Of a stretch of 64,000 nucleotides of DNA, positions 1 to 37,561 are shown one piece after another (the stretch's first letter is position 1; every line of letters begins with the position of its first letter). This DNA is from Actinomycetota bacterium (lineage in GTDB: Bacteria > Actinomycetota > Acidimicrobiia > IMCC26256 > PALSA-555). The notes beneath the pieces are model-generated. The model searched no databases, had not been told where the DNA came from, and worked only from the letters and a program-made list of their open reading frames with translations. Where the stretch lies: contig PLJD01000096.1 in NCBI GenBank assembly GCA_003140175.1, forward strand, positions 16,324 to 80,323, read 5' to 3'. The position numbers and the translations under genes are program-made.

Positions 1-216
1 GCAGGCGCGGGCGCACACGTCGAGGATGGCGCGACGCTCATCGGCCTCGAGCAGCGGGGTCTCCCCGGTCGTGCCGAGCGGCACGAGGCCCGCCACGCCC
101 GCCTCGAGGTACCGCTCGGCGAGGCCGGCCAGGGCGTCGAGTGCGACCGACCCGTCGGACGCGAACGGGGTGATCAAGGGGATGTACACGCCGCGCAACG
201 TCGCGTCGGTTCCCAC
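1..216 (-). CDS. dapA: 4-hydroxy-tetrahydrodipicolinate synthase, 5' part (runs off the window edge)
   Basis: Manual minus-strand translation from GTG at 216: MGTDATLRGVYIPLITPFASDGSVALDALAGLAERYLEAGVAGLVPLGTTGE, with the DapA TPF and GTTGE motifs. Not in the ORF track. Confidence 0.85.
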   Translation of the reverse strand, partial: MGTDATLRGVYIPLITPFASDGSVALDALAGLAERYLEAGVAGLVPLGTTGETPLLEADERRAILDVCARAC

Positions 217-241
217 GTCGTCGAGGGTAGCCTCCGCGGGG

Positions 242-1072
242 ATGTCCGACACGTGGCGAATCGTGTTGACCGGCCTGTTCGGCGTCGGGACCGGGCTCTT
301 GTCCGGCATGTTCGGGATCGGCGGGGCTGTCGTGTCGACCCCGGCGATCCGGCTGCTGGGCGCCACGCCGATCGCCGCGATCGGCTCGACGGTCCCCTCG
401 ATCATCCCGTCGGCGGTCACCGGCGCGTACCGCTACGCGCGCGAGCACCTCGTGGACTGGCGCGTGGTCGTGTGGACCGGGGCGACGGGGGCCGCGGCGG
501 CGGTCGGCGGCGCGTTCGCCAGCGGCGCCGTCCCCGGGGGCGGACATCCGCTCATGATCCTCACCGCGCTCATGGTCGGCTTCACGGCCTGGCGGCTCAG
601 CCGGCCCGTCACCGAGCCCGAACCCGAGCCGGTGCGCAGCGCCGAGGGCGCCACCGACGCCGCGCCGGGTCTGGCCCACCTCGCCGAGGGCCCACCCCGG
701 CTGGAGGCGTGGCGGCTCGCCGTGACCGGGATTGGCGCGGGTGCCCTGAGCGGCCTGCTGGGTATCGGCGGCGGGGTGCTCTTGGTCCCCGCGTTCACCA
801 GCTGGTGCCGGATGCCGATCAAGCCGGCGCTGGCGACGTCGCTGGCCTGCGTGGGCGTGCTGGCGGTCCCGAGCATGGTCACCCACGCCCTCCTCGGTCA
901 CATCAACTGGCTGTACGCGCTGCCGCTGTGCGTCGGCGTCGTCCCCGGGGCGCGCCTCGGCGCGCACCTCACGATCCGCTCGTCGGACCACACCTTGCGG
1001 TTCCTGATCGGAATCGTGCTCGGGATCGTCGCGGTCGCCTACGCCGCCGGGGAGATCATCGCCCTGGTGTGA
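242..1072 (+). CDS. TSUP (TauE/SafE) family transporter
   Basis: Two GLLSGxxGIGGG repeats, hydrophobic; start reset to ATG 242 (MSDTWRIV). Confidence 0.88.
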   Translation: MSDTWRIVLTGLFGVGTGLLSGMFGIGGAVVSTPAIRLLGATPIAAIGSTVPSIIPSAVTGAYRYAREHLVDWRVVVWTGATGAAAAVGGAFASGAVPGGGHPLMILTALMVGFTAWRLSRPVTEPEPEPVRSAEGATDAAPGLAHLAEGPPRLEAWRLAVTGIGAGALSGLLGIGGGVLLVPAFTSWCRMPIKPALATSLACVGVLAVPSMVTHALLGHINWLYALPLCVGVVPGARLGAHLTIRSSDHTLRFLIGIVLGIVAVAYAAGEIIALV

Positions 1073-1757
1073 TCGGCCGGTGGGCGAGCACCGTCGCTCG
1101 GGTCAGGACCGCGTCGAGCATCGCCTCGGTGAGGCGCCCGGTGAACGTGTTCTGCTGGCTGGGGTGGTAGCAGCCCAGAATCGTCGCCCGGGACGTCACC
1201 ACTTCCAGACCGTGCGCGAACCGGGGCCGGGGCCGGGGCAGCTCGACGCCCAGACCCGGGAGGACCCGCCACAGCGCCGCGTACGCGAAACCGCCGAGCA
1301 CGACGACGACCCGGACGTCTTCGAGCAGGGCGAGCTCGCGAGCGAAGTAGGGCAGGCACCGGTCGCGCTCGTCGGGGGTCGGATGGTTGTCCGGCGGGGC
1401 GCAGCGCACCGCGGCGGTGACGTACGCGCCGGACAAGGCCAGCCCGTCCCCGACCCGTTGCGACTCGGGCTGGTTGGCCAGCCCAGCTCGGCACAGCGCA
1501 CCGAAGAGCCAATCGCCGGAGCGGTCGCCGGTGAACACCCGTCCGGTGCGGTTCCCGCCGTGCGCGGCGGGAGCCAACCCGAGCAGCAGGATCGCGGCCC
1601 GCGGGTCCCCGAAGCCCGGCACGGGACGAGCCCAGTACGTCTCGTCACGAAACGCGGCTCGTTTGGTCCGACCGACCGTCTCGCGCCAGTCCACGAGACG
1701 CGGACACGCGCGACACGACACGATCTCCGACGTCAGATCGTCGAGCGCGGTGGGCAC
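1056..1757 (-). CDS. udgB: Uracil-DNA glycosylase, family 5 (UdgB-like)
   Basis: CRACPRL, GLAPAAHGGNRTGRVFTGD, RCAPPDN and HPSQQNT motifs. Confidence 0.92.
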   Translation of the reverse strand: MPTALDDLTSEIVSCRACPRLVDWRETVGRTKRAAFRDETYWARPVPGFGDPRAAILLLGLAPAAHGGNRTGRVFTGDRSGDWLFGALCRAGLANQPESQRVGDGLALSGAYVTAAVRCAPPDNHPTPDERDRCLPYFARELALLEDVRVVVVLGGFAYAALWRVLPGLGVELPRPRPRFAHGLEVVTSRATILGCYHPSQQNTFTGRLTEAMLDAVLTRATVLAHRPITPGR

Positions 1758-29588: not shown

Positions 29589-31097
29589 TCAGTCCCCGGG
29601 CAAACGCGACGCCGGCAGACCTAGCAGCGCGCTGCGAACAACATCAAGAAGCTCGTCATCGCTGAGTTCCAACGCCGACGGAGACACCAAGGCGCGCCTC
29701 CGCAACGATATGACGACCGCCATCAACATGATGGCCGTGAGCGCGCCGCCCATGCTTGCAACTCCGACGTGGAGACCGATCCAGCCCACGAGCCCGCCGG
29801 CGAGACCTCCGCCAACAAAGAGAGGCACATCGCTGCGGATAAGACCGACGGCTACATAACCCTCGACGCCGTGTTCTCGAAGTGATTCGATGAGCACGCT
29901 CAAATGCCAGCCAATCAGCGCAGCACAGCCAGCCACAGCCCCAGCGACCACCGCTCCGCCGGCCGATGAGACGAAGGCGGACGGAAGAAACACCGTGGCA
30001 CTCACAAGTACGGTCGCCCCAAGCACGATCGAGTAGGCCAGGCGACGTCGCGCGGAGTTGCTGACTGGCGGGGACAGCAGCGGAAGCCCGGTGGCGATAA
30101 GCACCACGAGTGGGCCCAAAGCCGGCTCACCACGATGGAACACGATGAACGCTGCGGACCCCGCCACTACCAACGCCGCACGAGCTGCTGCCGGCCGAAT
30201 GCGCACAAGGGCCAGCGCCCCCAGCCCGCCCAGACCCACCAAGGCCAGAAACTCAGCACTCGCGGGGAACTTCTCGGCGCTCGCGGTATCGGCCGAGATT
30301 CCGACCGCGAGAAGCACCCCTGCTGTGAGGGCCACGATTCCGGAGACTCGCCAAACCGATTTTGGGGCAAGCCGCCGCACGACGACCGGGTCGGCCACAA
30401 GTAGGAGCCCGACGAGCGCAAGGACCATTGCCCAGGTCCCCACGTCCCGCAGAACGACGTATCCCGCCACAAAGCCGAGAATTGCGAAGGGCAGCAACTC
30501 CGTCTCTGACCGAGTCAACTCTCGTATGTGGCGACCAAGCGAGCCGCCATCGGCGGCCCACAGGATCGCGGCGACTAGAACGTTGTTCACAGTCCAGTAG
30601 CCGACGACAGCGAGGATTGCGCTCAGCCCCACGGCGATCCACTCGGATGCACCAGCGACAAACAGGCTGCGACCCAGCGCTGCGGCCGCAAGAGTTGCGA
30701 GCGTCGTACAGGACGCGTTGACTACAAGTTTCCGGAATGCACCGTTTCGGACGTGATCCCAATGCAAGCCAGCGGCAAGACCGCAAACGGCTGGGACCCA
30801 GAGAGGACCTCCCGCAACCGCCGTCGCCGCAGCCGCCGACAGAATCACCATGCTCGAGTTGATGGCGGTCTCATCGCCAAAGATTGCAACACGTTGCGTC
30901 GCGACCACGCTCAGGACAACGAGCGCAGCGACGGTCCACGCGTCTACATCGCCCGGCCGGCCAAGGAGAAAGGCTCCGGCTAGCCCGGACGCCGCGGCGA
31001 GCCCAAGCACAACGGTCATCGCCTTCAAGACGACCGACGGCCGCTCCGGAACTGGCCTTCGACCGATTTGTTCTGCAGCGACCACTCTCGGTTTCAC
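29589..31097 (-). CDS. Polytopic membrane protein (MASE-like sensor, no visible output domain)
   Basis: Many hydrophobic segments; the N-terminal half resembles membrane sensor regions seen in front of HD-GYP/GGDEF domains; GTGA-coupled to the sigma gene. Confidence 0.6.
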   Translation of the reverse strand: MKPRVVAAEQIGRRPVPERPSVVLKAMTVVLGLAAASGLAGAFLLGRPGDVDAWTVAALVVLSVVATQRVAIFGDETAINSSMVILSAAAATAVAGGPLWVPAVCGLAAGLHWDHVRNGAFRKLVVNASCTTLATLAAAALGRSLFVAGASEWIAVGLSAILAVVGYWTVNNVLVAAILWAADGGSLGRHIRELTRSETELLPFAILGFVAGYVVLRDVGTWAMVLALVGLLLVADPVVVRRLAPKSVWRVSGIVALTAGVLLAVGISADTASAEKFPASAEFLALVGLGGLGALALVRIRPAAARAALVVAGSAAFIVFHRGEPALGPLVVLIATGLPLLSPPVSNSARRRLAYSIVLGATVLVSATVFLPSAFVSSAGGAVVAGAVAGCAALIGWHLSVLIESLREHGVEGYVAVGLIRSDVPLFVGGGLAGGLVGWIGLHVGVASMGGALTAIMLMAVVISLRRRALVSPSALELSDDELLDVVRSALLGLPASRLPGD

Positions 31098-31837
31098 GAG
31101 TCACCCCCCGGCGGCACGAGCCGATCGCCATAGAGGTCCTGCAGCTGCTGATAGCAGTCGGCACATGCCACGCACGTGGACAGGTGCGCTGAAATCTGGG
31201 CCCTGACCTTGCGACTGAGCTGGCCGCGCAGATACCGGCCGAGTTTCGAACGTACCGGTCGGCAGGTGCGGCACCCTCCCGATGCCGTGTGCTCGATGCA
31301 GAGGCCGACCAGCTCTTCCCGAGCCCGGTGTGCCCTCTGTCGCGCCGCGACCGGCGTGATCCCAAGCTGCTCAGACAACTCCAGAAAGCCAAGCCCCTCC
31401 ACGTAGCGAAGGACAAGCACTTCTCGGCTAGTTCGCGAGAGGGACTCAAACGCCTCGCGAGCGAGCACCGTGTCTAGCTCCGTCAGTACACGTTCCTCGG
31501 GGCCTGCCTCGGTCGCGGCGATGTGCTCGGCGGCATCTGCCCCAACAAAACGTCGGCTCCCCTGCTGTCGAAGTTGGTTCCGCCATAGATTTCGGACCGA
31601 CGTCAGCAAGTAGGCCTTAACGTTTGACGCGTCCTCGATGTATTGAGCCCGGCGCAGGACATTGAGAATTGCGGTGTGCGTCAGGTCCTCGGCCTCGGCA
31701 TCGCTACGAACAAGCCGCCTCGCAACTCGGAGCGCATCGCCTCGATACTGCGCGATGACCTGATCGAGTTCGTGATTTGGAGACCACTCCGCTCCACCCG
31801 GGCTCGACATCGACCCGCTCCCACCCTCCTGCCACAT
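31094..31837 (-). CDS. ECF sigma factor fused to a C-terminal zf-HC2 (ZAS) domain
   Basis: Region 2 AEAEDL...YLLTSVRN, region 4 LRYVEGL...RARE, C-terminal HLSTCVAC (HxxxCxxC). Confidence 0.88.
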   Translation of the reverse strand: MWQEGGSGSMSSPGGAEWSPNHELDQVIAQYRGDALRVARRLVRSDAEAEDLTHTAILNVLRRAQYIEDASNVKAYLLTSVRNLWRNQLRQQGSRRFVGADAAEHIAATEAGPEERVLTELDTVLAREAFESLSRTSREVLVLRYVEGLGFLELSEQLGITPVAARQRAHRAREELVGLCIEHTASGGCRTCRPVRSKLGRYLRGQLSRKVRAQISAHLSTCVACADCYQQLQDLYGDRLVPPGGDS

Positions 31838-32046
31838 CGAGGCGGGTAGGAAACTACCGGTGACGAGGTTCGATTGCTATGGGTGATCGCGGAAGGAAGG
31901 GATCGTTTCTATGTCACACACCTCGCGCGCTGGTGTCCTGCGTGCCTGCCCGGCCACAGCGCTTCCACGGTCGGTCCAGACGTCTCGAGGGATCCCCAAA
32001 TCCGTCGGTGCTCGGCCTGTGTCGGCGGGTTGGGTACCGTGAGGTC

Positions 32047-32601
32047 GTGTGGCTGCTGATCGCTACCGCGTTGGTCAGCCTTTTCGTCATCAGCCTCACG
32101 CACGGAAGTTTCGGCGAGTTGACAAGGTTGCGGGTCGCGGCGCCGTGGCTCCTCGCCACAGGACTCGTTGTCCAGGCGATCCTCGAATACATCGACATTC
32201 CAAGAAGCGACATCGATACCGTCGGTTATGGCTTGCTGATGGCCTCGTACGTCCTGATCCTCGCCTTCTGCGTTGCGAATATTCGAACCCGCGGATTCGG
32301 CGTGATCGCAATCGGCATAGCTCTAAACGCTCTCGTCATCGGACTCAATCAGGGCATGCCCACTAAGCCTGTGGGTGATGGTCCCCATGGCAACCGCGTC
32401 TTCAAACCCGTCGTTCAGACGGTCAAACACCGCCAGGAACGGAGCGATGATCTGTTGCGGTTTCTCGACGACCGAATCCTTTTTCCAAAGCCCTTCGACG
32501 AGTTGGTGTCGTTCGGCGACCTCGTCATGGCCGTAGGTATCTGCGAGTTGATGTACTACGCGAGCCGGCGGCCCGCAGGCGCTCCCGCCGTCACCGCGTG
32601 A
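32047..32601 (+). CDS. DUF5317 family membrane protein
   Basis: G.ALNALVI.LN.GMP, H, LDDRI and SFGD motifs. Confidence 0.85.
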   Translation: MWLLIATALVSLFVISLTHGSFGELTRLRVAAPWLLATGLVVQAILEYIDIPRSDIDTVGYGLLMASYVLILAFCVANIRTRGFGVIAIGIALNALVIGLNQGMPTKPVGDGPHGNRVFKPVVQTVKHRQERSDDLLRFLDDRILFPKPFDELVSFGDLVMAVGICELMYYASRRPAGAPAVTA

Positions 32602-33769
32602 GCAGTCCTCGACCTCGAAGGACCGATTCGAGCGCCGTCAGAACATTGCCGTCGTACACATAGGCCGGGCCGGTGAACAGAGCCTCGACCGCCCACGATG
32701 CGTGGGCATCGTCGCCCCCGGTCAGTTCGTCGTAGGCACTTGCGACCTTGAGGATCTGACCCATCAGTACCGCTCGGGTTTCCGACGGCGGATTCGAAGG
32801 GCGATGAAGCCCCGGTTCGGCGGCCACGATGTCGCCGGCATTGGCGAGCGCGTTGCTTGAGCGGAGCATGTCTGCGCCGGCCCTCGCGACGTCGGTGGCA
32901 TCCAGCTTTAGTCCGGTCGGCGGCTCGTCCAGGGACACTGCGCCGAGGTGATGCAGCCAAGCCGCGGTCTCGAGATCCCGGAGGCTGGCGTTGCTGACGC
33001 CGAGCTCTTGTCCGAGCCCAACGGATAGACCCGCCACCCGCTCAACATGTCCTTTGCGGGCTAGGCCACCGAGCTCTGGCGCGACTCCGAGCGCTTGAAC
33101 CGTTTGCTGGAACGTTCGACGAGTTCGGAGTAACAGCTCGTAGGAGTACCACGCAGCCAGGAGCGGAACCGAAAATAAGATTGGGCCCCAAAGGCCAAGC
33201 CCGCCTTGCCCGCCGATACCACCGTAACCAATTGCCATCAGCATTCCGCTGGTCGCGAGAGCTAGGTCAGCTCCACGACCCCGCCAGCGCGCCACGTACC
33301 CCTCCCGCAACAGAGTTACGAGATCGGCAACCACGAGTTCTGCGACTGCGGCTGCCGCCAGGGCACAGAAAACGACGAGTCGCGGATCTGAAGTAGCGCC
33401 GACGCGCATAGTCAGCTGAAACGCTGCGCCGGCACCGAGGCCCTCTGCGAGGTATTCAGCGAGCAGCAAGACTCGGCTTGGTATCCCACGCGGCTCCGTT
33501 CGCAGTGTCACGGCAACCACGGGAGCGAGGCTCGCGATCGCGACGAACTCGCCAGGCGACGCTGATCGCAGCAGTACGACGATGACCGCGAGGCCAACCG
33601 GAAGAGGGCTGCGCTGGTCGGGTCTCAACTCAAATATGTACCCGGCAACGAGAGCAGTACCGATCACGATCAGGTTGGTCGTGTCGGTGCTCGCGCCAGC
33701 AGCAATGGCGATGAGCAGGGTCAGGAAACATGCTCCGGCAAGAAGGAATAGGCGCCGCGCCTGGTTCAT
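32591..33769 (-). CDS. Membrane sensor fused to a degenerate HD-GYP domain
   Basis: N-terminal TM helices, then GHVERVA...AAWLHHLG...ILKVASAYDELT...YDGNVL; HD is HH, and HHE, GYP and RPY are absent. Confidence 0.85.
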   Translation of the reverse strand: MNQARRLFLLAGACFLTLLIAIAAGASTDTTNLIVIGTALVAGYIFELRPDQRSPLPVGLAVIVVLLRSASPGEFVAIASLAPVVAVTLRTEPRGIPSRVLLLAEYLAEGLGAGAAFQLTMRVGATSDPRLVVFCALAAAAVAELVVADLVTLLREGYVARWRGRGADLALATSGMLMAIGYGGIGGQGGLGLWGPILFSVPLLAAWYSYELLLRTRRTFQQTVQALGVAPELGGLARKGHVERVAGLSVGLGQELGVSNASLRDLETAAWLHHLGAVSLDEPPTGLKLDATDVARAGADMLRSSNALANAGDIVAAEPGLHRPSNPPSETRAVLMGQILKVASAYDELTGGDDAHASWAVEALFTGPAYVYDGNVLTALESVLRGRGLLTR

Positions 33770-34050
33770 GAGACCGTCTCCGTGCCATCGGCACACTCGC
33801 AACGACACGCCTCGGGCGGAGGTCGCTGTTCGCAGTGGCCAAGATACGCGAGCGCGGCACGCTGGGTGGGGAACGGTGCTGGATATGAGGACGTCGGTAT
33901 CGGCGATAGGTCTCGGCTCTCGCCGATGCCCGCCGCCGGCTGAGGCAGCATCGAGACTCCCGAGTGCGACCACATCTTGGCGATCGCCCAGGTGTGTGGA
34001 AAAGGCGGATTGGGCAGGGTCCCCGATCCAATCAGATGTTTCTCGTGGCG

Positions 34051-34140
34051 CTAGCGGAGGCCCTTGCCGGCACCGCCCGCGAGGACAAGTGCAGCAATGC
34101 TCGACCCGACAAGCGCAAGACGGACGATCAGCTTCTTCAT
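34051..34140 (-). CDS. 29-aa signal-peptide-like small protein MKKLIVRLALVGSSIAALVLAGGAGKGLR
   Basis: ATG at 34140, TAG at 34053-34051, AGAGGGGG RBS about 8 nt upstream; basic N-terminus, hydrophobic core, short tail. Below the ORF-track cutoff. Confidence 0.8.
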   Translation of the reverse strand: MKKLIVRLALVGSSIAALVLAGGAGKGLR

Positions 34141-34357
34141 AGCGAATTCCCCCTCTCTGAAAGCTCTCCTACCGGCTTCGCTATCCCCGGTGAGGTGAAC
34201 GCTCCGCTGATTCCCAACTGTTTGGGTTCCGTCGAGGCCCTGCCCATTCGACCCTCCCGGGCTCTCAACACAGGGCTCAGCTCGAACTCAAGCACAGGAG
34301 CAACTCTACGCGCCCCTGTAACTCTGCCGACGCCCAGCGGCGGTAGCCGCGATGTGT

Positions 34358-34373
34358 TGGGATCCACGTCACA
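34358..34373. promoter_or_regulatory. Possible CRP/FNR-type site TGGGA-N6-TCACA
   Basis: 9/10 match to TGTGA-N6-TCACA in the divergent region between the peptide gene and the 34427 ORF. Confidence 0.35.
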
Positions 34374-34426
34374 CGTCCGGGAGTTCCGTATCCTCCAAGC
34401 GGGACTAGTCGAGCTAAGGCGGCCCG

Positions 34427-35107
34427 ATGACCGAGCAGGGGATCGCGGGACTCGATGTCCAGGCGATCGAAAGTGAGCTCACTCGCCTTCCTGAGATTGT
34501 CGCCTGTCGCATCGTCGCTGATCCCCTCGGGCGCCCGCTCGAAGTTCATGTCTTGGCGCACCCTGGGAAACACCCAAAGCAGGTAGTGCGTGACATCCAA
34601 TCGGTCGCTTTGGCGTCGTTCGGCCTTGAGATCGATCGGCGGATCGTTTCAGTCGTTCAGCTTGGGCCCAGTGGTGCAGAGGGGGTCGAGCCGTCGCCAG
34701 CCCCGTTGGCCCGGATTGCGATCGGTGCAATTCAGTCGCAGTTGGAGGGGAAGCGGGCGACGATCCGTGTCACGCTTACATCGGGCAGCGTTGATGCGAC
34801 GGGGTTCGCTGAGGGATCGATTGCGGCAGCGACCCGTTTGCGTCTGGTCGCGACTGCGACGCTCGACGCGCTCCGCCAGCTACACAACTCGGCAGAGGCC
34901 ATCGAAGTGGAGCACGCGTCCATCGGCAAGGTGGGTAGCCAGGAAGTCGTCGCCGTAGCCCTCATCCTCGTCGATCCACCACACGAGTACGAGCTGGTCG
35001 GGACCGCCCTGGCGCGCCAGTCGCCCGACGTCGCGACCGTCCGAGCAGTCCTCGACGCAGTCAACCGTCGGATCTCGTATCTGTCGGGAGAGCACACGGT
35101 CTCCTGA
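34427..35107 (+). CDS. Conserved hypothetical protein (EVHVLA...KQVVRDIQS family)
   Basis: EVHVLAHPGKHPKQVVRDIQS...IDRRIVSVVQL; C-terminal ATVRAVLDAVNR. Confidence 0.85.
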   Translation: MTEQGIAGLDVQAIESELTRLPEIVACRIVADPLGRPLEVHVLAHPGKHPKQVVRDIQSVALASFGLEIDRRIVSVVQLGPSGAEGVEPSPAPLARIAIGAIQSQLEGKRATIRVTLTSGSVDATGFAEGSIAAATRLRLVATATLDALRQLHNSAEAIEVEHASIGKVGSQEVVAVALILVDPPHEYELVGTALARQSPDVATVRAVLDAVNRRISYLSGEHTVS

Positions 35108-35126
35108 TCGCGCGCAGAATCGGCTG

Positions 35127-36212
35127 ATGGGTACTCGGACTGCGGTCCTGCTCTCATACCGTCTGGGCGGCCAGGACGGGGTGTCGGTGGAGGCCCGGAA
35201 ATGGCAATGGGCGCTCCAGCATCTTGGCTTTGCGGTCCGCCGGGTCGCGGGTGAGTTCGACGACGATCTCTCGGCGGCTGACATCTGCTTGCCGTTCCTG
35301 GCCCGTGAGCGTCGGCCCGGTCAGCCCGCAGAGCACCGCGAGATCGGCCGGGCGGTCGCGGACGCTGATCTGGTCGTCGTCGAGAACTTGTGCTCACTGC
35401 CCTTGAACTTGGAGGCGGCCCGGGCCGCGGCTGCGGCGTTGGCTGCTTTCGCCGGGCGGGTCGTGTTTCATCATCACGACTTGCCGTGGGAACGGGCCGA
35501 GTTCGAGCCCTACACGGAGTTTCCCCCGCGCCGGTCGAACTCACTCCACGTCGTGATCAGCGAGCAGGCTCGTGCGGCACTGGCCCTTCGGGGGATGGAC
35601 GCGGTGACGATCCGCAACGGCTTCGACCTCGATGCGAAGCCGGGACGGCGCACGTCCACGCGGCGCCGCCTCGGATTTAGTCCCCAGGACGTCGTCGTGC
35701 TCCAGCCCACCCGCGCGATTGCGCGCAAGGACGTCGGCCGGGGGTTAGATCTCGCCGAGCGCCTCACCGTCGAGCTGCCGCGACGCCGCGTGCGTTACTG
35801 GCTCACCGGGCCCGCCGAGGATGGCTATGCAACCACCCTCGAGGACATCCTCGGTGCGGCCCGGATCTCGACCACCCACCTGCGCACCGAGAACGTGTCG
35901 GATGCCTATGCCGCATCGGACGTCGTGGTGATGCCGTCACGGTGGGAGGGATTCGGCAACCCGGTCATCGAGGCGATGATCGCCAGACGGCCGGTCGCAT
36001 CCGCTCCGTACCCGGTGCTGCGCGAACTCCTGGAGCTCGGGCTACACGTCCTGCCCATCGACGATCCGAGCGCCGTCGCGAGATTCCTCCAACGCCCGGA
36101 TGCGGGCATCTTGGAGGGCAACCGGGACGTCGTCGCGCGGGAGCTCGCTCTCGCCGACCTGCCCAAGCGGCTGACGGACGCGTTCGGGCGGGTAGGTTGG
36201 GCTGACTGGTGA
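35127..36212 (+). CDS. Glycosyltransferase family 4
   Basis: DGVSVE..KW, QPTRAIARK, PSRWEGFGNPVIEA. Confidence 0.9.
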   Translation: MGTRTAVLLSYRLGGQDGVSVEARKWQWALQHLGFAVRRVAGEFDDDLSAADICLPFLARERRPGQPAEHREIGRAVADADLVVVENLCSLPLNLEAARAAAAALAAFAGRVVFHHHDLPWERAEFEPYTEFPPRRSNSLHVVISEQARAALALRGMDAVTIRNGFDLDAKPGRRTSTRRRLGFSPQDVVVLQPTRAIARKDVGRGLDLAERLTVELPRRRVRYWLTGPAEDGYATTLEDILGAARISTTHLRTENVSDAYAASDVVVMPSRWEGFGNPVIEAMIARRPVASAPYPVLRELLELGLHVLPIDDPSAVARFLQRPDAGILEGNRDVVARELALADLPKRLTDAFGRVGWADW

Positions 36213-36487
36213 GCGAGCCCTCTGACCCGATCCTGCAACAGCGCGCACGGATCCGCCACTTCGTGGCGGTCGCACAACGCTGCGGGTACGGGGCGATGCT
36301 GCTGGCCATCGTGTTCTTCGGGATCGGGGCAGCCACCAACTTTCCCGACTGGACCGTTGTGTCGACCGTCACCACGCTCGTGATCTCCATGGCCGTCCTC
36401 CCGGTCCCCATCGTCCTGGGCTATGGCGTGCGCGCGGCCGAGCGGGAGGACCGTCAGCGCCAATCCCCCGAGCGCGGCGCCGAGTAG
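36209..36487 (+). CDS. Small two-TM membrane protein
   Basis: Coupled to the GT4 gene; PIVLGYGVRAAEREDR. Confidence 0.75.
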   Translation: MSEPSDPILQQRARIRHFVAVAQRCGYGAMLLAIVFFGIGAATNFPDWTVVSTVTTLVISMAVLPVPIVLGYGVRAAEREDRQRQSPERGAE

Positions 36488-36556
36488 CGGTTCGCCCGAC
36501 CGCCGGACGACCATCTACCCTCGGACCGATCGGGCGACCACCGAAGGGAGATCGCC

Positions 36557-37561
36557 GTGCGGTACCGCCGCTTCGGGAACTCTGACCTCGTTGTCTCGGA
36601 AGTCGGGTTCGGCACCTGGACGCTGGCCAGCGACTGGTGGGGCGTCGTCGAGGACAAGCAGGGGCTGCTGCACGCAGCGCTGGACGCGGGCATCACGTTC
36701 TTCGACACCGCCCCCGTCTACGGCAACGACGGCGTCGGTGAGTCGCTGCTCGTGGAGCTGCTCCGCACCCATCGAGCAGAGATCGTCCTGACCACCAAGT
36801 GCGGGTACGACATCGACGCCCCCCGCCCCCCCGGCCAGTCCGAACGACCTCAGGACTGGCGGCCCGAGGCGATTCGGGAGCAGCTCGATGCCTCGCTGCG
36901 CCGGCTGGGGACGGACTACGTGGACCTCTACCAGCTCCACAACGCCCGACTCTCGCCGATCCTGGACGACGATCTCTGGGCCGAGCTCGCGCGCTTACGC
37001 GAGCAAGGCAAGGTCCGTGAGCTCGGCGTCGCGCTGGGACCAGCCATCGGATGGGTCCAGGAGGGCCTCGAGTCTCTGCGCCGACGGCCGATCGCGTCGC
37101 TGCAGACGGTCTTCAACATTTTGGAGCAGGAGCCGGGCCGCACCTTCGCCGCCGAGCCTGCGATCGTGGACGGGACGGCCGGGCTCATCTCGCGCGTCCC
37201 GCATGCTTCGGATGTGCTCTCGGGCAAGATCGACCGCGACACGGTCTTCGCGGCGACCGACCACCGCTCCCACCGCAACCGGGACAACATGCTCGACAAC
37301 TTCGAGAAGGCCGAGACGCTCTCCTTCCTGTGGGAGGGCAGCGGCCGGACGATCGCGCAGGCGGCCGTCGCGGGGATCCTCGCCAATCCTGCGTTCACGA
37401 CCGTGCTGCCAACGTGCGTCACGGTCGACGACGTTCGAGAGTTTGCGACCGCCGCTGACCATCCCCTCGATGCGAGCGAAATCGCGCGGCTTGGAGAGCT
37501 TTGGGAGAGCAACTTCGGTCACACCGACCGGTATGAGATGCCCTTGAAGTCCAGCGCGTGA
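36557..37561 (+). CDS. Aldo/keto reductase
   Basis: VSEVGFG, FDTAPVYG, TK, SLRRLGTDYVDLYQLH. Confidence 0.93.
   Translation: MRYRRFGNSDLVVSEVGFGTWTLASDWWGVVEDKQGLLHAALDAGITFFDTAPVYGNDGVGESLLVELLRTHRAEIVLTTKCGYDIDAPRPPGQSERPQDWRPEAIREQLDASLRRLGTDYVDLYQLHNARLSPILDDDLWAELARLREQGKVRELGVALGPAIGWVQEGLESLRRRPIASLQTVFNILEQEPGRTFAAEPAIVDGTAGLISRVPHASDVLSGKIDRDTVFAATDHRSHRNRDNMLDNFEKAETLSFLWEGSGRTIAQAAVAGILANPAFTTVLPTCVTVDDVREFATAADHPLDASEIARLGELWESNFGHTDRYEMPLKSSA

Follow-up and report, generated by a model that had tools for sequence, protein, structure and literature searches.

KdpF with KdpABC, AcrZ with AcrB and MgrB with PhoQ are examples of small single-pass membrane proteins that belong to larger partners, and small membrane proteins in general are routinely missed by annotation. 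Small hydrophobic open reading frames (ORFs) are also carried by the hok/Sok and aapA1/IsoA1 toxin mRNAs, in which they are combined with 5'-3' long-distance pairing and a sequestered Shine-Dalgarno (SD) sequence. To our knowledge, it is chiefly in such toxin mRNAs that an RNA structure has been seen to enclose an ORF that is translated. In Firmicutes, pheromones of the Phr type are derived from signal peptides, their precursors being short, built mostly as an export signal and ending in a C-terminal tail of about five residues. As for membrane sensors, we know of no ligands for the MASE-type domains. For MASE9-type domains, the available text of a published account describes short outer loops and proposes that ligands are bound within the membrane (bioRxiv 10.1101/2021.11.05.467447). 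The nearest analogue that we found in the literature for the locus described here is the CD1980.2 family of Clostridioides difficile, which, according to the available text of the report on it, comprises membrane-associated proteins of 58 aa encoded behind class I c-di-GMP riboswitches (PMC13724677).

The window analysed here is a stretch of 64,000 nucleotides from an Acidimicrobiia genome (GenBank assembly GCA_003140175.1, contig PLJD01000096.1). It carries a 29-codon ORF which lies within a conserved RNA fold and directly ahead of a gene for a multi-pass membrane protein of the HD family. Neither the 29-residue peptide nor the RNA fold that encloses it was found to have been described before. 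Our literature searches turned up no description of the peptide, of the fold or of a small ORF ahead of MASE9/HD-GYP genes, and the available text of the account of MASE9-HD-GYP proteins makes no mention of a small upstream ORF (bioRxiv 10.1101/2021.11.05.467447).

The small ORF and its peptide family

The ORF lies at 34051..34140 on the minus strand and encodes MKKLIVRLALVGSSIAALVLAGGAGKGLR, followed by the stop codon TAG, just as the original prediction, which named no strand, had read it; its product is a conserved small hydrophobic protein. The strong ribosome-binding site that had been claimed for it is also present. A purine run with GGGGG (GAGAGGGGGA, 34148..34157, minus strand) ends 7-8 nt 5' of the ATG, and in all 21 of the loci collected first the frame opens at an ATG, GTG or TTG that stands 6-10 nt after a G-rich SD. 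The ORF had further been called unannotated. It does fall outside the Pfam and NCBIfam families (no Pfam family was matched, and the only NCBIfam match was SE2200_fam, at 13.9 bits against a cut-off of 30), but the exact 29-aa sequence is already held in public protein collections. We found it in the NCBI, JGI/IMG, Logan and ENA collections, on 11 contigs, and its relatives carry the name 'hypothetical protein' in public records; the ESM Atlas holds only unnamed clusters of 29-30 aa for it.

An ORF of 29 codons alone is not beyond chance, since the 6.5 kb of G+C-rich DNA around it contain 99 ORFs of at least 20 aa, and it is conservation that lifts this one above chance. When 61 related genomes were searched in six frames, 46 were matched at E <= 10 (in many cases below 1e-5), and a second copy of the peptide came to light in the window's own genome. 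The first loci were fetched by way of such peptide matches, so that their sequence likeness is itself there by construction. The position of the stop codon is identical in all 21 of these loci. Among the peptide loci, the mean pairwise differences at the first, second and third codon positions were 0.277, 0.136 and 0.509, respectively, and the differing codon pairs divided into 1987 synonymous and 1916 non-synonymous ones in frame, as compared with 457:3360 and 128:3661 in the other frames. The small ORF is under purifying selection at the amino-acid level along the whole peptide, and it is almost certainly a real gene of the translated type.

Homologues of the same length and with the same stop position were found at 49 distinct places in Acidimicrobiia genomes. 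When the family profile was run against 1.84 billion representative proteins, 56 clusters were matched at E <= 1e-3; all of them measure 24-100 aa and carry the motif C-terminally, and the longer members are proteins whose start codon was called too far upstream. Among the 1.84 billion representatives, no larger protein was seen with the peptide fused to it, and hence there is no Rosetta-stone support for a partner. One member, P0013 (64 aa), continues for about 30 residues beyond the usual stop position (…LAGGAGWKMAPSMTRPF…), which could be due to read-through, a frameshifted variant or an assembly error.

Of 301 genomes sampled across the class, 47 were matched by the peptide profile at E <= 1e-3, a tally that takes in the unpublished genome G273. 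Within the window's order, 45 of 86 genomes were matched, counting that of the window, and the 215 genomes outside it yielded two weak matches, both within frames of more than 300 aa. Sixteen orthologues of the downstream HD gene had not been flagged by the profile, and nine of these are preceded by an ORF of 28-31 aa with the same build, four of the nine coming from other orders (an example is MKGKLVRILAALGSLAAAIVAGSATMKIG); the profile is therefore too narrow. Genomes carry one to three copies of the peptide each, and the carriers of the unit are Acidimicrobiia MAGs from lakes, groundwater, peat and permafrost.

The peptide is built of a basic N-terminus (MKK..R), a hydrophobic GSSxAAxxLAGGA span and a short C-terminal tail that is basic or aromatic. 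With residues numbered from the LLAGGA anchor, 63 distinct members were seen to be invariant or nearly so at K-17, R-12, S-6, S-5, A-2, L+1, A+2, G+3, G+4 and A+5, with R-12, G+3 and A+5 being strictly invariant and the hydrophobic core rich in small residues. The original prediction had expected a conserved LAGGA followed by a variable tail, and the alignment bears this out: the LAGGA columns are almost invariant, at 0 to 0.4 bits each, and the tail is the most variable part, its first four positions carrying 2.1 to 2.9 bits. Beyond LAGGA, 63/63 members have just 4-6 residues, which leaves no mature protein. Every one of the 63 tails contains K, R or H, none contains D or E, and 38 contain W, F or Y, a composition typical of an anchor at the membrane interface. 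Tails are repeated unchanged between genera (GKGLR seven times and SRIWR six times), and the paralogous pairs of one genome differ in theirs (GKGLR in one and GRTWK in the other).

A Sec signal has a basic n-region, an h-region of 7-15 residues and a c-region with small residues at -3 and -1. In the peptide, MKK..R would supply the n-region and AGGA fits the small residues at -3/-1, and the span of hydrophobic and small residues between the invariant Arg and the GGA end measures about 17 (to 21) residues, with both ends basic. To judge from its sequence, the peptide could be a cleavable signal peptide about as well as a membrane anchor. A lipoprotein signal peptide was considered and rejected, as the lipobox Cys has no instance in the 63 distinct members; the LAGG without Cys that had been pointed out in the window peptide is indeed there, and is a feature of the entire family. 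The hydrophobic core (an invariant R-12, SS, AA and LL) is as conserved as LAGGA, which is unusual for what would be a mere export signal. Taken with the basic or aromatic tail, this invariant core would fit a membrane anchor better than the precursor of a pheromone, and a helix so rich in small residues, with a basic, aromatic end, reads as a putative membrane-embedded packing helix.

The RNA fold around the ORF

From an alignment of 41 rows, RNAalifold yields a long-range helix of 24 bp, H1, with its 5' arm at 34232..34258 and its 3' arm at 33999..34025 (both on the minus strand). The small ORF and its stop codon lie within the loop of about 208 nt that H1 closes. The 3' arm includes the conserved spacer motif GGGGACCCTGCCC; across the family this motif, GRGGYCCTGCC, is found in the spacer 3' of the stop codon, and its reverse complement lies 100-125 nt 5' of the start codon. 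When the two flanks were folded as a duplex, 46 of the 48 distinct loci did better than their shuffles (z < -2), and the longest helices reached about 30 bp. In the alignment, 93.2% of the H1 cells are paired as compared with 77.7 +/- 0.8 in shuffled alignments, a value that 0 of 500 shuffles reached, and double-sided changes occur in 21 of the 24 pairs against 13.0 +/- 1.5 shuffled; both here and for the leader, such controls overstate significance, because related genomes are not independent. When the partner arm was slid along, 37-53% were paired. The non-Watson-Crick cells of H1 comprise 95 G.U and 26 A.C, an excess to be expected only of a helix that exists as RNA in the sense of the ORF. 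In distant orders the helix arms are in the same place and of unrelated sequence, and they are still complementary to each other. The loop measures 186-232 nt, the 3' arm comes 7-37 nt after the stop codon (median 22), and a median of 12 nt separates the 3' arm from the HD start codon.

Folded as a single sequence, the spacer (33760-34060) gave z = -0.16. RNAalifold on an alignment of -35..+70 had given a weak pairing of SD and anti-SD, of -4 kcal/mol, which was superseded after the upstream arm was added. Genome-wide, the spacer motif is not enriched, with six matches in its own genome against five in a reversed control. Three of the six are clustered at the paralogue locus, that is, at the second peptide-HD pair (pair B). 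There, a 13-nt core of the helix arm is found three times within 450 bp (G000 contig C112, 9075-9533, locus L021), one copy lying 3' of the ORF and two 5' of it in the opposite sense, and pair B may possess two alternative 5' arms, at -125 and -321.

Inside H1, the leader is itself structured, as was seen when the sequences were folded one by one, and its elements are all on the minus strand. P2, a short hairpin at 34213..34226, has a GAAG-like loop in most relatives and a dG of -5 or lower in 34 of 40 leaders, and double-sided changes are present in 6/6 pairs of its helix (helix 1). It is followed at 34200..34208 by AGCGRAGCG, a GC-GRA-GC mini-hairpin which is invariant in 40/40 leaders, lies 66-76 nt 5' of the start codon and is present in eight of nine distant loci as well, those of other orders included. 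P3, a long two-part hairpin at 34164..34199, reaches a dG of -10 or lower in 39 of 40 leaders; its loop, with UAGCGR, repeats the AGCGR of the mini-hairpin, and its helices 3 and 4 show double-sided changes in 9/9 pairs. In P4, a local hairpin at 34147..34163, the partner of the SD is a CCCUC-like stretch upstream of it. Of 40 leaders, 33 have the SD paired in their local minimum free energy fold, and helix 5 has double-sided changes in 4/4 pairs.

A covariance model of the leader, R1, was seeded by hand from 12 leaders. In the window it matches only at 34138..34237 (minus strand; 29.1 bits, E 4.8e-5), and in 67 sources it gave 38 full-length matches. In the R1 alignment, which is fitted to the model and so favours structure, 89.9% of the cells of the leader helices are paired against 73.0 shuffled, and 19 of the 21 pairs show double-sided changes. 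In a MAFFT alignment of the leaders (A6) the hairpins were misaligned, and RNAalifold together with a column-pair scan returned no pairs there and one spurious helix. Beyond the order, R1 matched 2 of 151 genomes of a phylum sample, and in its own genome it matched the window copy only; since the model is narrow and was seeded from one family, these sparse matches are not proof of absence. Searched at E <= 1, Rfam had no match in positions 31000-37000 of the window and none in seven related loci.

Metatranscriptome contigs that are 100% identical to the window were found in two runs of two studies. They span 33751-34130, 34122-34296 and 33879-34132, and thus cover the small ORF, the leader and the spacer. 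As these contigs carry neither strand nor level and DNA carry-over is possible, they lend weak support to transcription of the unit, and to transcription only. A promoter scan, limited to the sigma-70 consensus, gave no promoter-like site on either strand of 33500-34700. The deepest contig in both runs is a discrete piece flanked by adaptors, which covers 34408-34665 in X19 (depth 75) and, in X20 (depth 23), 34430-34666. This piece, whose end at 34665/34666 is common to the two runs, takes in 240 nt at the beginning of the gene for a 226-aa protein, with its start codon at 34427, and could be a stable 5' fragment or a small RNA.

The downstream HD gene and its neighbourhood

At 45 of the 49 distinct places, the peptide gene is followed on the same strand by a full gene for a multi-pass membrane protein of the HD family; at the other four there is one HD remnant of 24 residues, one place without HD and two loci that are cut off. 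Taken with the 9 of 16 further HD orthologues that have a small ORF ahead of them, this is a linkage of the kind that marks accessory small membrane proteins. The HD start usually lies 50-76 nt past the stop codon of the peptide, HD genes of family f1 often have no visible SD, and a terminator scan gave no terminator between the small ORF and the HD gene. In the usual gene order, the genes for a GT4 glycosyltransferase and a 226-aa protein share one strand, from which the peptide gene and then the HD gene diverge, and these are followed by a convergent DUF5317 gene, an ECF sigma/zf-HC2 gene and the gene for a 502-aa membrane protein.

In the window, the two divergent conserved neighbours occupy 34427..36212 (+). 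The 226-aa protein (34427-35107, +), which adjoins the unit in most genomes at an identity of 49-75%, gave no match in Pfam, NCBIfam, PADLOC or a PDB sequence search. The gene for the 502-aa membrane protein, which has its transmembrane sensor domain in common with the HD proteins, lies at 29589..31097 (-), with the ECF sigma/zf-HC2 gene 5' of it at 31094..31837 (-). This sigma factor, to which an anti-sigma-type zinc finger (zf-HC2) is fused, overlaps the start of the 502-aa gene by 4 nt. The conserved cluster holds no gene for a peptidase, an exporter or a receptor with an outer domain, and PADLOC gave no relevant match in the context of the small ORF.

The pair of peptide and HD gene is duplicated in the window's genus and in genome G019. 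Both paralogous pairs of the window genome keep the peptide-HD arrangement, pair A being that of the window and pair B lying on another contig. The HD protein of pair B, HD_B, is 440 aa long and carries an HD_5 domain (E 1e-25, 90.9 bits against a cut-off of 27.2). Its N-terminal integral-membrane domain is a weak match to MASE9 (E 0.022, below the Pfam cut-off), and the protein resembles a model of NosR-family c-di-GMP phosphodiesterases (2e-23, far below the cut-off of that model). The HD-GYP motif is HHExxDGxGYP, and in a 28-row HD alignment its GYP part was not seen. Full-length homologues of HD_B are present in 170 of the 301 class genomes at E <= 1e-40, a tally that takes in the unpublished genomes G273 and G260. 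Orthologues of HD_B (for example at 109-1428, minus strand, of locus L021) end after the HD domain in a nearly invariant VG(T/V)GSAGLGDL, a stretch without annotated function.

In the window itself, the peptide precedes HD_A (32591..33769, minus strand; the start is uncertain and may be the ATG at 33769 or the GTG at 33973), a multi-pass membrane protein whose HD_5-type domain is degenerate. The domain scores 21.2 bits, below the cut-off, it reads LHHLGA in place of MHDIGK, with HD changed to HH, and the identity is 24%. Along with the HD dyad, HD_A has lost the VPNxLLNKPG stretch and the C-terminal GSAGLGDL motif of HD_B, and in two genomes of the same genus (L003 and L007) its frame is in two pieces, which could reflect decay or an assembly error. 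Beside this protein of 24% identity, the pair A peptide is still 83% identical to those of other genera, which is not as tight co-evolution with the adjacent protein predicts.

In genus g3, whose genomes are small, the HD and 226-aa genes are gone, as are the long helix and the AGCGRAGCG anchor, and the peptide gene is retained between the GT4 and DUF5317 genes. Two g3 species differ in the peptide at 14 codons, 11 of the changes being synonymous and three conservative, and upstream of it their DNA cannot be aligned save for the SD. That g3 keeps such a ratio when HD gene, helix and anchor are gone argues that the peptide is selected as a protein. Its remaining neighbours in g3 include the sigma gene and the 502-aa membrane protein, and the latter has an N-terminal half that shows homology with the HD_B transmembrane domain (hhalign 98.4%, E 5.5e-15, over 243 columns). 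This homology, in a protein that adjoins the g3 peptide, suggests that the shared sensor domain, rather than the enzyme part of the HD proteins, may be the common denominator. In the window, one sensor domain is seen wired to two different outputs within a single neighbourhood (that at 29589-31837 and the HD proteins). A co-fold of the paralogous 30-aa peptide with residues 1-235 of HD_B, both entered as alignments, gave ipSAE values of 0.13 and 0.01 against a mark of 0.32, which in a run without controls speak neither for nor against binding.

Proposed role and relation to known systems

In our best reading, to which we give about an even chance, the peptide is a single-pass membrane microprotein that acts with MASE9-like sensor proteins. 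Its gene would open a conserved unit of two cistrons, of which the other encodes a candidate multi-pass membrane signalling protein with a MASE9-like sensor and an HD_5 (HD-GYP-type) output domain. The peptide would stay in the membrane and pack against the sensor domain, which the two HD paralogues and the sigma-linked 502-aa membrane protein appear to have in common, and it would serve there as an accessory subunit or an intramembrane modulator. The RNA fold would set the timing and the ratio of the two proteins, whether by hiding both ribosome-binding sites or by presenting a double-stranded site for processing. Membrane residence, the sensor as partner and the role of the RNA fold are what we infer here. 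A further reading, which we consider rather unlikely, takes the fold of about 260 nt as a whole (the helix, two GRA mini-hairpins, P2, P3 and the SD hairpin) to be a switch that responds to a ligand or a protein, with the 29-mer as its output, an intramembrane ligand that would switch MASE9-like sensors. The 29-mer would then be made on demand and insert in the membrane, and its targets would be the HD-type second-messenger enzymes and the sigma-factor-linked membrane protein.

It is unlikely that the ORF is a cis-acting leader peptide (uORF), whereby the act of translation remodels the RNA fold and so opens or closes the HD start, and the peptide itself is irrelevant. The geometry of the unit speaks for such a device, as the helix that encloses the ORF has a 3' arm which stops a median of 12 nt short of the HD start, and the stop codon of the ORF lies 7-37 nt ahead of that arm. 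So do the many f1 HD genes without an SD of their own, the hairpin that holds the SD of the small ORF in 33/40 leaders, and the separate peptide copy that each duplicated HD gene has kept. Yet purifying selection on the amino acids spans the whole peptide and not just its end, and g3 has retained the peptide gene with 11 synonymous to 3 non-synonymous changes despite the loss of the HD gene, the helix and the anchor. Moreover, a chain of 29 residues remains in the ribosomal tunnel until its release, so that force-sensing arrest of the SecM/MifM kind is not possible. A role of the uORF and a role of the peptide are compatible with each other. The pheromone that the original prediction inferred would instead be released by signal peptidase, cutting after LAGGA or nearby, and its tail of 4-7 residues would be sensed by the adjacent membrane protein. 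We find this distinctly improbable, even though the n-, h- and c-region build with small AGGA residues at -3/-1, the nearly invariant LAGGA ahead of the most variable tail, the membrane protein of sensor type encoded alongside, and the different tails (GKGLR, GRTWK) of paralogous pairs in one genome would all agree with it. What counts against release is that the h-region is conserved as much as LAGGA, that the tails are of one physico-chemical type class-wide and recur across genera instead of diversifying, that the conserved cluster has no exporter or peptidase gene, and that the g3 peptide persists without the proposed adjacent receptor. MASE9-type sensors also have short outer loops only, ligand binding being proposed within the membrane in the available text on them (bioRxiv 10.1101/2021.11.05.467447).

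The original prediction had named a type I toxin as its alternative, that is, a membrane-damaging peptide whose mRNA is silenced by the 5'-3' helix and the sequestered SD and controlled by an antisense RNA. A small hydrophobic ORF, a long-range helix that closes the mRNA around it and an SD in a hairpin are what such a toxin would have, but this explanation is very unlikely. The ORF keeps the same neighbours across the whole class, directly ahead of one gene family, and only one to three copies are present per genome. Its amino-acid conservation goes far beyond that of type I toxins, among which we know of none conserved as strongly. Either strand of 33500-34700 is free of promoter-like sites of the sigma-70 consensus, which was the only one scanned for, the bias of G.U over A.C indicates a structure on the sense strand, and there was no PADLOC match. 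Scarcely credible is the proposal that the arms act as inverted repeats in DNA, as the ends of an invertible promoter segment or as a pair of operators, with the ORF being incidental. Inverted arms of about 25-30 bp around a segment of about 210 bp between divergent genes might be taken that way, were it not that all 49 places show one orientation, that the G.U:A.C count of 95:26 is expected for RNA and not for DNA, that arms of unrelated sequence are complementary across orders, that the contigs of four runs (contigs only) hold no inversion joints, and that the ORF itself is under selection.

If the membrane microprotein is the correct reading, the unit provides a candidate partner for a MASE-type sensor domain, conserved throughout a class of Actinomycetota that come from peat, permafrost and lakes and are for the most part uncultured. 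The fold, which covaries strongly and has a conserved coding ORF within it, adds a new structured element to those known from mRNAs. Should the peptide modulate the HD-type enzymes, it would add an extra layer of second-messenger control. Should the RNA be a switch, its ligand would point to the stimuli of these sensors, and the 29-mer would be a signal of the cell's own making, confined to the membrane, that links an RNA sensor to protein sensors.

Like KdpF, AcrZ and MgrB, the window peptide has about 30 residues and one putative hydrophobic helix, and its gene adjoins that of a polytopic membrane protein. It has no sequence relation to these three, its candidate partner is the MASE9-like sensor of an HD_5-type protein, and its gene, unlike theirs, is wrapped in a conserved RNA fold. 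With the hok and aapA1 mRNAs the unit has in common a small hydrophobic ORF, 5'-3' long-range pairing and a sequestered SD; it differs from them in its synteny with a downstream signalling gene, in its class-wide conservation and in that no antisense RNA was seen. The resemblance to Phr-type precursors lies in a short peptide that could be mostly export signal, with a C-terminal tail of about five residues, whereas the conserved hydrophobic core, the different phylum and a neighbourhood without a Rap/RNPP-type receptor or an exporter set it apart. On the side of the partner, HD_B resembles HdgA of Streptomyces venezuelae, a MASE9-HD-GYP protein, in joining an N-terminal integral-membrane domain to HD_5, and differs from what the available text reports of HdgA in that its MASE9 match is below the Pfam threshold and GYP was not seen in the alignment (bioRxiv 10.1101/2021.11.05.467447). 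In comparison with the CD1980.2 proteins, as far as the available text describes them (PMC13724677), the window peptide is half as long and without sequence likeness to them; theirs are from Firmicutes and stand behind a known riboswitch class, whereas the leader of the window unit matches no Rfam family and the fold encloses the ORF, which an HD-type gene follows. Both are small, domainless proteins, membrane-associated in the one case and predicted to be so in the other, encoded behind a structured leader in a c-di-GMP-related setting and overlooked by annotation.
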